Part shown: positions 1 to 4,223 of the stretch, in pieces
Numbering within the stretch: position 1 is the stretch's first letter
Layout of the letters: each line of letters opens with the position of its first letter
Virus record (IMG/VR): IMGVR_UViG_2565956712_000005
Reading direction: 5' to 3' (one strand)
Source: a virus
Lineage: Duplodnaviria > Heunggongvirae > Uroviricota > Caudoviricetes
DNA length: 4,223 nucleotides
Notes under the pieces: generated by a model
The model's database searches: none
Told to the model about the DNA's origin: nothing
Seen by the model: only the letters and a program-made list of their open reading frames with translations
Program-made: the position numbers and the translations under genes

Positions 1-2636
1 ACCCGCGCTACGGCATGGGGAAACGTCTTGGTGCGGCGGATGTGGACAAATGGGCGCTGTATGTCATCGGCCAGTACTGCGACCAGTCAGTGCCGGACGG
101 CTTTGGCGGCACGGAGCCGCGCATCACCTGTAATGCGTACCTGACCACACAGCGCAAGGCGTGGGATGTGCTCAGTGATTTCTGCTCGGCGATGCGCTGT
201 ATGCCGGTATGGAACGGGCAGACGCTGACGTTCGTGCAGGACCGGCCGTCGGATAAGGTGTGGACCTATAACCGCAGTAATGTGGTGATGCCGGATGATG
301 GCGCGCCGTTCCGCTACAGTTTCAGCGCCCTGAAGGACCGCCATAATGCCGTTGAGGTGAACTGGATTGACCCGAATAACGGCTGGGAAACGGCAACAGA
401 GCTTGTGGAGGACACGCAGGCCATTGCCCGTTACGGTCGTAACGTCACGAAAATGGATGCCTTTGGCTGTACCAGCCGGGGGCAGGCGCACCGCGCCGGG
501 CTGTGGCTGATTAAAACGGAACTGCTGGAAACGCAGACCGTGGACTTCAGCGTGGGCGCAGAAGGGCTTCGCCATGTGCCGGGCGATGTCATTGAAATCT
601 GTGATGATGACTATGCCGGTATCAGCATCGGCGGGCGCGTGCTGGCGGTAAACAGCCAGACCCGGACGCTGACGCTCGACCGTGAAATCACGCTGCCATC
701 CTCCGGTACCACGCTGATAAGCCAGGTTGACGGAAGTGGCAATCCGGTCAGCGTGGAGGTTCAGTCCGTCACCGACGGCGTGAAGGTGAAAGTGAGCCGT
801 GTTCCTGACGGCGTTGCTGAATACAGCGTATGGGGGCTGAAGCTGCCGACGTTGCGCCAGCGCCTGTTCCGCTGCGTGAGTATCCGTGAGAACGACGACG
901 GCACGTATGCCATCACCGCCGTGCAGCATGTACCGGAAAAAGAGGCCATCGTGGATAACGGGGCGCACTTTGACGGCGACCAGAGCGGCACGGTGAATGG
1001 TGTCACGCCGCCAGCGGTGCAGCACCTGACTGCCGAAGTCACCGCAGACAGCGGGGAATATCAGGTGCTGGCGCGCTGGGACACGCCGAAGGTGGTGAAG
1101 GGCGTGAGCTTTATGCTTCGCCTGACCGTGGCAGCGGATGACGGCAGTGAGCGGCTGGTCAGCACGGCCCGGACGACGGAAACCACATACCGCTTCACGC
1201 AACTGGCGTTGGGAAACTACAGGCTGACAGTCCGGGCGGCAAATGCCTGGGGGCAGCAGGGCGATCCGGCGTCGGTATCGTTCCGGATTGCCGCACCGGC
1301 AGCACCGTCGCGGATTGAGCTGACACCGGGGTATTTTCAGATAACCGCCACGCCGCATCTTGCCGTTTATGACCCGACGGTACAGTTTGAATTCTGGTTC
1401 TCGGAAAAGCGGATTGCGGATATCAGACAGGTTGAAACCACAGCGCGCTATCTTGGCACGGCGCTGTACTGGATAGCTGCCAGTATCAATATCAGGCCGG
1501 GCCATGATTATTATTTTTACATCCGCAGTGTGAACACCGTTGGCAAATCGGCATTTGTGGAGGCTGTTGGCCAGCCGAGTGATGATGCATCCGGCTATCT
1601 GGATTTTTTCAAAGGAGAGATAGGGAAAACCCATCTGGCTCAGGAGTTGTGGACGCAGATTGATAACGGTCAGCTTGCGCCTGACCTGGCTGAAATCAGG
1701 ATGTCCATTACGGATGTCAGCAATGAAATCACGCAGACCGTCAATAAGAAACTGGAAGACCAGAGTGCAGCGATCCAGCAGATACAGAAGGTTCAGGTTG
1801 ATACAAATAATAACCTGAACAGCATGTGGGCTGTGAAGCTGCAGCAGATGCAGGACGGACGCCTTTATATCGCGGGTATTGGTGCCGGTATTGAGAATAC
1901 CCCTGACGGTATGCAGAGTCAGGTGCTGCTGGCGGCGGACAGGATTGCGATGATTAATCCTGCGAATGGCAACACAAAGCCGATGTTTGTTGGTCAGGGC
2001 GATCAGATATTCATGAACGAAGTGTTCCTGAAATACCTGACGGCTCCCACCATTACCAGCGGCGGTAATCCTCCGGCATTTTCCCTGACACCGGACGGGC
2101 GGCTGACGGCGAAAAATGCAGATATCAGCGGTAACGTGAATGCGAACTCCGGGACGCTCAACAATGTCACGATTAATCAGAACTGCCGGATTCTGGGAAA
2201 ACTGTCAGCCAACCAGATTGAAGGCGATATTGTTAAAACGGTGGGCAAAGCTTTCCCCCGGGACTCCCGTGCACCGGAGCGGTGGCCATCAGGGACCATT
2301 ACCGTCAGGGTTTATGACGATCAGCCGTTTGACCGGCAGATTGTTATTCCGGCGGTGGCATTCAGCGGCGCTAAACATGAGAGAGAGCATACTGATATTT
2401 ACTCCTCATGCCGTCTGATAGTGCGGAAAAACGGTGCTGAAATTTATAACCGTACCGCGCTGGATAATACGCTGATTTACAGTGGCGTTATTGATATGCC
2501 TGCCGGTCACGGTCACATGACGCTGGAGTTTTCGGTGTCAGCATGGCTGGTAAATGACTGGTATCCCACAGCAAGTATCAGCGATTTGCTGGTTGTGGTG
2601 ATGAAGAAAGCCACCGCAGGCATCAGTATCAGCTGA
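1..2636 (+). CDS. J: Host-specificity / central tail fibre protein J, C-terminal 873+ codons; 5'-truncated by window edge (reading frame is open from nt 3, the ATG at 15 is internal)
   Basis: Single long ORF in frame 3 with no stop between the window start and TGA at 2634-2636. The translation ([12 protein letters not shown]...[59 protein letters not shown]...) matches my recollection of phage lambda gpJ, which is 1132 aa, so about 260 N-terminal residues lie upstream. Two fibronectin-III-like blocks (about nt 1005-1295 and 1305-1570) as in gpJ. Gene order J-lom-stf is the lambda arrangement. Confidence 0.9.
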
Positions 2637-2654
2637 ATTTTATAACCCCAATAC

Positions 2655-2682
2655 GGGCGTCAGAAATGACGCCTTTTTTATT
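2655..2682 (+). terminator. Rho-independent terminator downstream of J (7-bp perfect stem GGCGTCA / TGACGCC, GAAA loop, then TTTTTTATT)
   Basis: Read directly: ggcgtca (2656-2662), gaaa (2663-2666), tgacgcc (2667-2673), followed by the T-run 2674-2682. It lies 20 nt after the J stop codon. Confidence 0.7.
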
Positions 2683-2692
2683 GCAGAAAAGC

Positions 2693-2698
2693 GAGAGG
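2693..2698 (+). promoter_or_regulatory. Shine-Dalgarno sequence (GAGAGG) for lom, 5 nt upstream of the ATG
   Basis: Purine-rich gagagg at 2693-2698 with a 5-nt spacer to ATG at 2704. Confidence 0.6.
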
Positions 2699-2703
2699 TA
2701 ATT

Positions 2704-2775
2704 ATGCGTAAATTATGTGCTGTTATTCTGTCCGCAGTAGTCTGGCTGGTTGCCGCTGGTACGCCAGCGAGCGCA
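2704..2775 (+). other. Sec signal peptide of Lom (24 codons; predicted cleavage after ASA)
   Basis: Basic N-region (MRK), hydrophobic core (LCAVILSAVVWLVAA), and A-S-A at positions -3 to -1 before AEHQ. Confidence 0.7.
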
Positions 2776-3303
2776 GCAGAGCATCAGTCCACACTAAGCG
2801 CCGGGTATCTTCAGACCCATACTGATATGCCAGGCAGTGATGACCTGAAGGGCATTAACGTGAAATACCGTTATGAATTTACGGACACGCTGGGGCTGGT
2901 GACGTCATTCAGTTATGCCAATGCCAAAGATGAGCAAAAAACGCATTACAGCGATACCCGCTGGCATGAAGATTCCGTGCGTAACCGCTGGTTCAGCATG
3001 ATGGCGGGGCCATCTGTACGCGTGAATGAATGGTTCAGTGCTTATGCGATGGCGGGTATGGCTTACAGCCGTGTGTCGACCTTCTCCGGGGATTATCTCC
3101 GCGTAACTGACAACAAGGGGAAAACGCACGATGTGCTGACCGGAAGTGATGACGGTCGCCACAGCAACACGTCTCTGGCGTGGGGGGCTGGCGTGCAGTT
3201 TAACCCGACCGAATCCGTGGCCATTGACCTTGCTTATGAAGGTTCCGGCAGTGGTGACTGGCGCACTGACGGTTTCATCGTGGGTGTCGGTTATAAATTC
3301 TGA
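2704..3303 (+). CDS. lom: Lom-family outer membrane protein (Ail/Lom/OmpX/PagC 8-stranded beta-barrel family), 199 aa, complete
   Basis: Complete ORF with SD. N-terminal signal peptide MRKLCAVILSAVVWLVAAGTPASA followed by AEHQ (A-x-A signal peptidase I site). The C-terminal block AYEGSGSGDWRTDGFIVGVGYKF with terminal Phe matches my recollection of the lambda Lom C-terminus and the usual outer-membrane beta-barrel signature. KGINVKYRYE and SAYAMAGMAYSR motifs resemble Lom/Ail strands. Position between J and stf is as in lambda. Confidence 0.9.
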   Translation: MRKLCAVILSAVVWLVAAGTPASAAEHQSTLSAGYLQTHTDMPGSDDLKGINVKYRYEFTDTLGLVTSFSYANAKDEQKTHYSDTRWHEDSVRNRWFSMMAGPSVRVNEWFSAYAMAGMAYSRVSTFSGDYLRVTDNKGKTHDVLTGSDDGRHSNTSLAWGAGVQFNPTESVAIDLAYEGSGSGDWRTDGFIVGVGYKF

Positions 3304-3330
3304 TTAGCCAGGTAACACAGTGTTATGACA

Positions 3331-3358
3331 GCCCGCCGGTTCAGGCGGGCTTTTTTGT
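3331..3358 (+). terminator. Rho-independent terminator downstream of lom (7-bp GC-rich stem GCCCGCC / GGCGGGC, 6-nt loop, then TTTTTT)
   Basis: Read directly: gcccgcc (3331-3337), loop ggttca (3338-3343), ggcgggc (3344-3350), T-run 3351-3356. It lies 27 nt after the lom stop codon. Confidence 0.75.
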
Positions 3359-3362
3359 GGAG
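3359..3362 (+). promoter_or_regulatory. Shine-Dalgarno sequence (GGAG) for stf, 5 nt upstream of the ATG
   Basis: ggag at 3359-3362, with ATG at 3368; it sits immediately after the terminator T-tract. Confidence 0.55.
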
Positions 3363-3367
3363 TGGAT

Positions 3368-4223
3368 ATGGCAGCAGTAAAAATCTCAGGTGTGCTGAAA
3401 GATGGTGCGGGAAAACCAATACAGAACTGCACTATTCAACTGAAGGCAAAGCGTAACAGCACCACGGTACTGGTGAACACGGTGGCCTCTGAAAATCCGG
3501 ATGAAGCCGGGCGTTACAGCATGGATGTTGAGTATGGCCAGTACAGCGTTATCCTGCTTGTTGAAGGTTTTCCGCCTTCACATGCCGGAACCATTACCGT
3601 CTATGAAGGTTCCAGACCAGGTACGCTGAATGATTTTCTCGGTGCCATGACGGAAGATGATGTCATGCCGGAGGCATTGCGTCGTTTTGAGGAAATGGTG
3701 GAAGAAGCGGCACGCAACGCCGAAGCCGCCTCTCAGAGCGCAGCGGCGGCAAAGAAATCCGAAACTGCAGCGGCATCATCGAAGAACGCGGCGAAAACCT
3801 CAGAAACGAATGCAGCTAATAGTGCACAGGCGGCAGCGACCTCACAGACTGCATCAGAAAACTCCGCGACAGCAGCCAAAAAATCAGAAACCAACGCGAA
3901 AAATAGCGAGACAGCCGCAAAGACGAGCGAAACCAACGCAAAGTCCAGCCAGACGGCAGCGAAAACCAGCGAAACGAATGCCAAAGCCAGTGAAACTGCG
4001 GCGAAAAGCAGTCAGGATGCAGCAGCCGAAAGCGAGAGTGCTGCAGCTGGTTCTGCAAGCGCGGCTGCTGCTTCTGCCACTGCATCAGCTAACAGTCAAA
4101 AAGCAGCAAAAACCAGTGAAACCAACGCAAAGGTGAGCGAAACAGCGGCTGCGAACTCAGCGAAAGCATCGGCAGCAAGCCAGACGGCAGCTAAAGCAAG
4201 CGAAGATGCAGCCAGAGAGTACG
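3368..4223 (+). CDS. stf: Side tail fibre protein Stf, N-terminal 285 codons; 3'-truncated by window edge
   Basis: Frame-2 ORF from ATG 3368 is open to the window end. The N-terminus MAAVKISGVLKDGAGKPIQNCTIQLKAKRNSTTVLVNTVASENPDEAGRYSMDVEYGQYSVILLVEGFPPSHAGTITVYE... matches my recollection of the conserved prophage tail-fibre N-terminal domain of lambda Stf. This is followed by an Ala/Ser/Thr-rich repetitive shaft typical of Stf and T4 gp37-like fibres. Absent from the ORF track only because no stop codon falls in the window. Confidence 0.85.
   Translation, partial: MAAVKISGVLKDGAGKPIQNCTIQLKAKRNSTTVLVNTVASENPDEAGRYSMDVEYGQYSVILLVEGFPPSHAGTITVYEGSRPGTLNDFLGAMTEDDVMPEALRRFEEMVEEAARNAEAASQSAAAAKKSETAAASSKNAAKTSETNAANSAQAAATSQTASENSATAAKKSETNAKNSETAAKTSETNAKSSQTAAKTSETNAKASETAAKSSQDAAAESESAAAGSASAAAASATASANSQKAAKTSETNAKVSETAAANSAKASAASQTAAKASEDAAREY
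3757..4223 (+). repeat. Degenerate in-frame tandem repeats inside stf encoding an A/S/T/K/E-rich low-complexity shaft (recurring K-T/S-S-E-T-N-A-K and S-E/Q-T-A-A-K units)
   Basis: Recurring nucleotide units such as aaaaccagcgaaaccaacgcaaag, tcagaaaccaacgcgaaaaat and agcgaaacgaatgccaaagcc. Translated, these give AKTSETNAANS, KKSETNAKNSETAAKTSETNAKSSQTAAKTSETNAKASETAAKSSQ and AKTSETNAKVSETAAANSAKASAASQTAAKASEDAA. Confidence 0.7.

Follow-up and report, generated by a model that had tools for sequence, protein, structure and literature searches.

Extra genes between the tail genes of HK97 and HK022 were defined as morons by Juhala et al. 2000 (summarised in PMC3594210), and Lom, the outer-membrane protein encoded between J and stf in phage lambda, has likewise been called moron-encoded and prophage-expressed (PMC3594210, PMC7067206, PMC1151598). 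Lambda lom is counted among the few genes expressed from the prophage (PMC7067206, PMC1151598), and lom of Phi24B was found to be equally expressed in lysogens and induced cells and hence uncoupled from induction (PMC3342100), whereas one lysogen array study did not detect lom and its promoter was described as little known (PMC2147009). A strong expression of Lom during the lytic cycle is stated in PMC9836094 and bioRxiv 10.1101/2025.02.28.640651, both with reference to Liu et al. 2013. According to the same preprint (bioRxiv 10.1101/2025.02.28.640651), over-expressed Lom strongly protects against lambda-vir, but not against T7, Lom levels in lysogens are too low to exclude lambda-vir while late expression is strong, and Lom was proposed to block non-productive adsorption late in infection. 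The gene is not needed for plaque formation (PMC10695390).

The stretch of DNA analysed here (4,223 nucleotides, referred to as the window) stems from a lambda-like E. coli phage or prophage, more precisely from its late (tail) operon. Open reading frames and Pfam matches across the whole window gave the gene order J - lom - stf with all three genes on the + strand, and every long ORF with family support in the window is located on this strand. The 3' part of J, the tail-tip/host-specificity gene, spans positions 15..2636 (+ strand, 873 codons), position 15 being merely the first in-frame ATG of an ORF that is truncated by the window start; it carries five J/tail-tip Pfam domains (Phage-tail_3, Ig_J, Ig_J_second, Phage_Tail_Tip and Ig_GpJ_C) and is named J in the annotations of related phages. 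At the other end, stf, the side tail fibre gene, is represented by its 5' part (3368..4223, + strand, truncated by the window end), which matches phage_tail_N (PF08400) with E=7.8e-68, and stf is annotated at this place in related phages. Only two intergenic gaps, of 67 and 64 nt, are present. The window matches 255 phage records, with PhiR55_1 (PV340571) showing 96.7% identity over 98% of its length, and, of 5426 complete E. coli genomes, 4007 (about three quarters) contain an 881-nt segment surrounding lom at a coverage of at least 80%, with a median of 2 and a maximum of 14 copies; E. coli copies number roughly 15,000. An Rfam scan of the whole window (E<=1) returned only two chance matches, including Trp_leader with 21.7 bits against a cut-off of 41; since all matches were below threshold, the window contains no known RNA family.

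The gene lom itself (2704..3303, + strand) encodes a 199-aa precursor of an Ail/Lom-family outer-membrane beta-barrel protein. The Ail_Lom profile (PF06316) covers Lom residues 1-199 with profile positions 1-199 of 199 (E=1.5e-127; 423.5 bits against a cut-off of 23), and a PDB sequence comparison matched the structures of lambda Lom (9wso_C, E=2.6e-49), OmpX (1qj8 and others) and Ail (3qra), the latter two at E ~1e-18, which places the window Lom among the homologues of solved 8-stranded barrels (Lom, OmpX, Ail). An earlier sequence-only reading of this DNA had described lom as a complete Ail/Lom-family gene situated between J and stf in the late tail operon, and both statements hold, with PF06316 matched end to end and J and stf Pfam domains on either side. 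By inspection, the N-terminus (MRKLCAVILSAVVWLVAAGTPASA, followed by AE) is hydrophobic and resembles a signal peptide, with ASA at residues 22-24, and the C-terminus (...GVGYKF) closes with Phe, an aromatic residue as typical for outer-membrane barrels. A single-sequence AlphaFold2 model of Lom proved unusable (pLDDT 37.6). Lom varies mainly within the signal peptide, at residues 37-49 and at residues 73-81.

Starting 18 nt past the J stop codon, the first gap contains an intrinsic-terminator-like hairpin (2655..2682, + strand) with the sequence GGGCGTCA-GAAA-TGACGCCT at 2655-2674, continued by TTTTTTATT to 2682; the T-run itself covers 2674-2679 and is followed by ATT. The stem-loop (8 bp with 5 G-C pairs, 4-nt loop, six T) has a calculated energy of -13.0 kcal/mol, and within a 41-nt context the fold reached -14.4 (z=-3.9), with 0/200 shuffles folding as well. 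The hairpin was retained in 189/189 lom-bearing and 95/95 lom-less contexts examined. Across its 23 distinct variants, standard pairs account for 97.8% of pair cells, and two of the eight pairs show compensatory changes (one from G-C to A-U, the other from C-G to U-A) along with wobble intermediates, while the T-run is almost invariant. The covariation score was reached by 0/500 shuffles, and sliding the partner strand abolished the pairing. Lambda (CGTCCGGGAACGGGCG+TTTTATTAT) and Stx2_14744 (GGGCACCTCAGGAGGTGCC+TTTTTT) carry hairpins of unrelated sequence at the same site. The covariation backs a hairpin as such and does not tell RNA from single-stranded DNA; because the T-run is orientation-specific, a terminator is favoured over a DNA hairpin.

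The second gap holds a hairpin that belongs to lom (3330..3356, + strand), again in the form of an intrinsic terminator. It begins 26 nt past the lom stop codon and reads AGCCCGCC-GGTTCA-GGCGGGCT at 3330-3351, with the T-run at 3351-3356. Its stem-loop (8 bp with 7 G-C pairs, 6-nt loop, six T) has a calculated energy of -17.6 kcal/mol, or -18.6 in context (z=-3.2; 2/200 shuffles as good). The sequence is near-invariant across alleles, lambda included, so that the alignment offers no covariation and lends the structure no independent support; evidence for a functional hairpin is stronger for the upstream than for the downstream element. A 13-nt palindrome in the lom 3' UTR (TAACACAGTGTTA) was also considered and rejected as consistent with chance and disrupted in some variants.

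With an intrinsic terminator defined as a GC-rich stem (5-14 bp) and loop (3-8 nt) directly ahead of a U-run on the transcribed strand, both hairpins display the GC-rich stem, the loop and the U-run in a gap just after a stop codon; on the minus strand, no T-run follows either of them, and the terminator form is thus confined to the + strand. A consensus scan found four terminator-like sites window-wide against 4.3 in shuffles and hence no excess; the two top-ranking ones alone combine a perfect 8-bp stem with six T, and they fall one into each intergenic gap, an outcome with a chance of roughly 1e-3 as estimated from the shuffle rate. Equally stable 30-nt segments occur elsewhere in GC-rich coding sequence, none of them followed by a T-run. 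The GenBank record of Ayreon (MF807953) also lists 'terminator' features flanking lom at equivalent positions. The sequence-only reading had placed terminators on both sides of lom at 2655-2682 and 3331-3358; canonical intrinsic-terminator-like hairpins are indeed present there, one per gap and within 1-2 nt of these positions, and the free-energy calculation it had asked for yielded the values of -13.0 and -17.6 kcal/mol. In lambda, terminators to the right of J were reportedly mapped by Luk and Szybalski in 1983.

Relatives without lom between J and stf, suggested earlier as a basis for comparison, do exist. Among 80 viral contigs collected via the stf N-terminal domain, ten have J directly followed by stf, and an exact-pattern scan recovered the lom-less junction in 86 viral contigs and the lom junction in at least 120. 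In the lom-less junction, the J stop is followed by ATTTTATAACCC.., GGGCGCCAGAAATGGCGCC and TTTTTTATT, and then by TGTGGAGTGA(A/G)TATG of stf. The window has the same J stop, hairpin and TTTTTTATT, then the leader GCAGAAAAGCGAGAGGTAATT-ATG of lom, and past the lom hairpin and T-run the stf sequence TGTGGAGTGGATATG resumes; this ribosome-binding region of stf (3356..3370, + strand) lies directly 3' of the J terminator in lom-less relatives. Direct junction comparison with the ten lom-less loci delimits a present/absent module of 673 bp (2683..3355, + strand) that consists of a 21-nt leader, the ORF, a 26-nt spacer as 3' UTR and lom's own terminator. Its two breakpoints each lie at the 3' end of a T-tract, with an ambiguity of 2 nt (TT microhomology), and a separate 3-nt indel is found at the stf start. 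The leader (2683..2703, + strand), invariant in window-type alleles, contains a Shine-Dalgarno sequence, GAGAGG (2693-2698), 5 nt ahead of the lom ATG.

The gene is accessory, as the sequence-only reading had assumed, being present or absent between J and stf in close relatives, and identical J-stop/hairpin haplotypes were found both with and without it. Since the hairpin is kept in lom-less phages, the junctions show that the upstream terminator is the resident J 3' terminator of the J-stf junction, and as such part of the J-stf backbone and not of lom. The idea of a cassette bounded by two terminators of its own is accordingly halved: the downstream terminator lies within the indel and stands, while the upstream one, kept in lom-less phages, has to be given up.

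Sequence identity between phages follows a mosaic pattern along this region. The J C-terminus and the first two-thirds of lom are variable, the hairpin and leader between them are conserved, and the lom 3' end, its terminator and the stf 5' end are again conserved. Alleles of lom with 44-100% identity all have a conserved hairpin at their left, and the window-type leader is kept in all of them except lambda and Stx2_14744. Furthermore, the lom block occupied one single site in 189/189 contexts, with no hint of mobility. The mosaic fits allele exchange by homologous recombination in the conserved flanks, not a self-contained mobile unit.

An alternative reading of the same pattern takes the hairpins primarily as structural joints, be it as hot spots of recombination or insertion or as stabilisers or processing sites of late-mRNA 3' ends, which mark module boundaries in mosaic lambdoid genomes. 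It would account for the position of both lom breakpoints at the ends of hairpin T-tracts, for the sharp shifts of identity between phages at the hairpins and for an IS200-like element that lies 3 nt past the lom T-run in two relatives (L011 and L074), and a terminator within a Q-antiterminated operon would mostly be bypassed. We nevertheless regard a primarily structural role as decidedly unlikely, as both hairpins take the full canonical terminator form exclusively in the direction of transcription, the T-run stays near-invariant while stem bases vary compensatorily, and an unrelated hairpin-plus-T occupies the same site in lambda and Stx2_14744; joint and terminator roles are, besides, not mutually exclusive. 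As a side possibility, the terminator T-tracts could serve as preferred joints at which modules such as lom or IS200 enter or leave the late operon.

The junctions alone are compatible with insertion or deletion of lom. If the gene were ancestral at this site, the lom-less state would have arisen by deletion between the T-tracts and lom would be a decaying late gene, in line with the TT microhomology of 2 nt at the breakpoints, truncated lom ORFs in 7/136 unique lom-bearing haplotypes, a GC content equal to that of the neighbours and the fact that lom-bearing copies are commoner than lom-less ones in the samples. This history appears somewhat unlikely to us, however, as homologues at other tail-operon positions fit repeated acquisition: in Gifsy-2 the homologue lies between M and L and adjoins sodC, in VT2-Sakai it follows the tail-fibre genes, and both types have the downstream hairpin only. 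Moreover, the direction of the event would leave the identity and expression of the module unchanged. The small RNA 24B_1, encoded downstream of lom in Phi24B (PMC4426718), was set aside as not applicable here because the lom context in that phage is a different, podovirus-type one.

The sequence-only reading had gone further and regarded lom as an autonomous cassette, and this claim is not supported by the sequence. A sigma-70 consensus scan detected no + strand promoter in the entire window, and a promoter-matrix scan of the 200 nt upstream of lom gave a best score of 5.28 compared with 7.06 +/- 2.1 in shuffles, thus nothing above chance; with the module reaching only 21 nt ahead of the ATG, it has no room for a promoter. 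The GC content of lom (0.537) is ordinary when set against the last 600 nt of J (0.525), the whole J fragment (0.564) and stf (0.532), and hence gives no sign of compositional foreignness relative to its neighbours (0.525-0.564). Together with the single site occupied, and as far as the DNA itself can tell, the architecture does not demonstrate autonomy of lom. The absence of a consensus promoter is compatible with a weak, activator-dependent, non-consensus or alternative-sigma promoter, and as lom is reported to be expressed in lambda and Phi24B lysogens, some promoter can be argued to exist; a mapped lom promoter or transcription start was not found in the literature searched.

These observations bear directly on the view of lom as a classical autonomous moron, which would be transcribed from its own promoter up to its own terminator in the repressed prophage and contribute to lysogenic conversion through adhesion or serum resistance. 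The presence or absence of lom between near-identical J and stf genes and its own terminator agree with this view, as do the description of Lom as moron-encoded and prophage-expressed (PMC3594210, PMC7067206, PMC1151598) and the uncoupling of lom expression from induction in Phi24B (PMC3342100). In contrast, the module offers merely 21 nt ahead of the ATG and no sigma-70-like promoter, the upstream terminator is backbone, the GC content is not deviant, lom went undetected in one lysogen array study (PMC2147009), and the lysogen level was too low to exclude lambda-vir while late expression was strong (bioRxiv 10.1101/2025.02.28.640651). Of the features by which morons are recognised, lom thus has the alternation between presence and absence at the same position and the own terminator, and fails to show an own promoter and a deviant base composition. 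We consider independent transcription of this kind unlikely for the present locus.

Instead, lom is probably a promoterless accessory module in the late operon, transcribed mainly by terminator-resistant late polymerase and insulated in the prophage. On the model of lambda, a Q-modified, terminator-resistant RNA polymerase would cross both hairpins during lytic growth, and lom would thereby be expressed late, jointly with J and stf; as Q and pR' are located beyond the window, we infer this read-through from lambda. In the repressed prophage, the J terminator would halt stray upstream transcription before it reaches lom, and lom's own terminator would keep lom transcripts out of stf. A low lysogenic expression of the lambda type would require a weak or non-consensus start that is unrecognisable in the sequence. 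The Lom protein would be exported to the outer membrane. As the variable unit is promoterless and the upstream terminator fixed, expression in lysogens should not be assumed from the architecture.

A possible function for such a late protein is suggested by phage T5, in which llp adjoins the receptor-binding-protein gene oad. Llp serves as a working analogy in that this small envelope protein, whose gene is next to that of the receptor-binding protein, masks the receptor used by the phage itself, although Llp is a lipoprotein and the product of an early gene whereas Lom is a beta-barrel. The analogy is based on lambda Lom, which was deposited together with LamB and blocks lambda-vir when over-expressed: PDB entry 9wso contains maltoporin (LamB) chains and Lom chains, meaning that a LamB-Lom co-structure has been deposited. 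In addition to an older report on adhesion, the data available for lambda Lom indicate a binding to LamB and, on over-expression, protection against lambda.

Transferred to the window, lom could encode a late, phage-serving receptor-masking protein behind the receptor-binding domain (RBD) of J, with divergent alleles masking different receptors, the two terminators holding back its production in lysogens and Q antitermination alone allowing high levels. The pairing of J and Lom was analysed in 185 unique haplotypes. Each major J-RBD cluster pairs with several Lom clusters, and lom-less loci were also seen for three of the four. In a Mantel test, the distances of J-RBD and Lom correlated at r=0.14-0.20 (p=0.001), compared with 0.07-0.09 for the stf flank. 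The association between J and Lom is thus weak and close to the level expected from physical linkage. Tight coupling, with Lom alleles matched to J-RBD types, is not supported by these coefficients and the mixed pairings, and given the weak coupling a receptor-matched role is unsupported for the window allele, in which respect the window Lom departs from the T5 Llp analogy. We rate the complete receptor-masking scheme as quite unlikely. Independent of this scheme, the 'virulence cargo' reading of lom rests on the lambda literature, in which newer data point to a phage-serving role, and the promoterless variable unit, taken together with the evidence for a binding of LamB and a block of lambda by lambda Lom, calls for caution against naming every prophage lom a virulence factor.

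Compared with described loci, the arrangement J-lom-stf with two hairpins is already known, very common and annotated in GenBank (Ayreon). Ayreon (MF807953) and PhiR55_1 (PV340571) show allelic differences only, the Lom of Ayreon being 88% identical to that of the window and its J C-terminus being different. Lambda lom (NC_001416 18965-19585) shares with the window the order J-lom-stf on the same strand and a hairpin with T-tract in both gaps, and DNA identity is 76-92% in the final ~80 nt of lom, in the terminator behind it and at the start of stf. In contrast, the two Lom proteins are only 44% identical (199 aa in the window, 206 aa in lambda), the last 200 J residues including the receptor-binding domain are 55% identical, and the upstream hairpin of lambda (CGTCCGGGAACGGGCG) is unrelated in sequence. 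Like the morons of HK97 and HK022, lom is an extra gene between tail genes that is present or absent in close relatives and has its own terminator; unlike them, it has no recognisable promoter and an ordinary GC content, and its upstream terminator belongs to the backbone. The present analysis adds the exact boundary of the module and makes clear that the architecture itself is no demonstration of independent transcription. It thereby refines the variable unit to a Shine-Dalgarno leader, an ORF and a terminator, apparently promoterless, which bears on the annotation of these loci and on how lom is used to exemplify morons.

Comparison of 88 distinct Lom proteins, each of 199 aa like the product of lom in the window (2704-3303), revealed that variable positions concentrate in the signal peptide and two short stretches, the variable segments comprising residues 4-25, 37-49 and 73-81. 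Residues 121-199 were nearly invariant, with a mean distance of 0.036 versus 0.141 for residues 1-120. The lom coding region (2704-3300) also led to PDB entry 9wso, in which lambda Lom (206 aa, under the chain name 'Outer membrane protein lom') is accompanied by maltoporin (LamB), and the presence of both proteins in one entry implies that a Lom-receptor complex has been deposited.

In prophages, lom is often decayed or rearranged. Truncated lom open reading frames of 21-185 aa were detected in 7 of the 136 unique lom-bearing haplotypes among the related loci, and three loci (L054, L075 and L079) retain just the 3' part of lom, adjoining stf.

A tandemly duplicated unit, consisting of a C-terminal J fragment (241 aa), a hairpin and lom, was observed in one further related locus (L124, 763-6800), where J (763-4242) is followed by a first lom copy (4310-4909), the J fragment (5013-5738) and a second lom copy representing a different allele (5806-6405), and then by a divergent stf start. 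Separately, an IS200-like element of 711 bp lies between the lom terminator and the stf ribosome-binding site in L011 (2726-3500) and also in L074; its product is a Y1 transposase (PF01797, E=5e-38). As the insertion point is located 3 nt past the T-run of the lom terminator in both loci, we concluded that a second element landed directly behind this terminator and shortly ahead of the stf ribosome-binding site.

The position of Ail/Lom genes varies from one lambdoid tail operon to another, as follows from the Gifsy-2 Lom homologue, which is encoded between tail genes M and L (L087 1501-2090, corresponding to NC_010393 31238-31827). This homologue adjoins a convergent sodC gene, with one hairpin and T-run separating the two. 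The lom genes of the VT2-Sakai/933W type carry a hairpin and T-run about 25 nt past the lom stop (ACCCGCTGTGATGGCGGGT TTTTTATT; L086 2259-2285 and L088 1992-2024), with a hairpin energy of -10.8 kcal/mol. For the equivalent region of Phi24B, ARNold is reported to have found no Rho-independent terminator (PMC4426718).

Within the samples compared, the N-terminus of stf differed with lom status: window-type lom-bearing copies start with MAAVK (window 3368-3376), whereas lom-less copies start with MAVQ (e.g. L083 at 3501), the two starts being separated by a 3-nt indel and one substitution. Lambda stf starts with MAVK.
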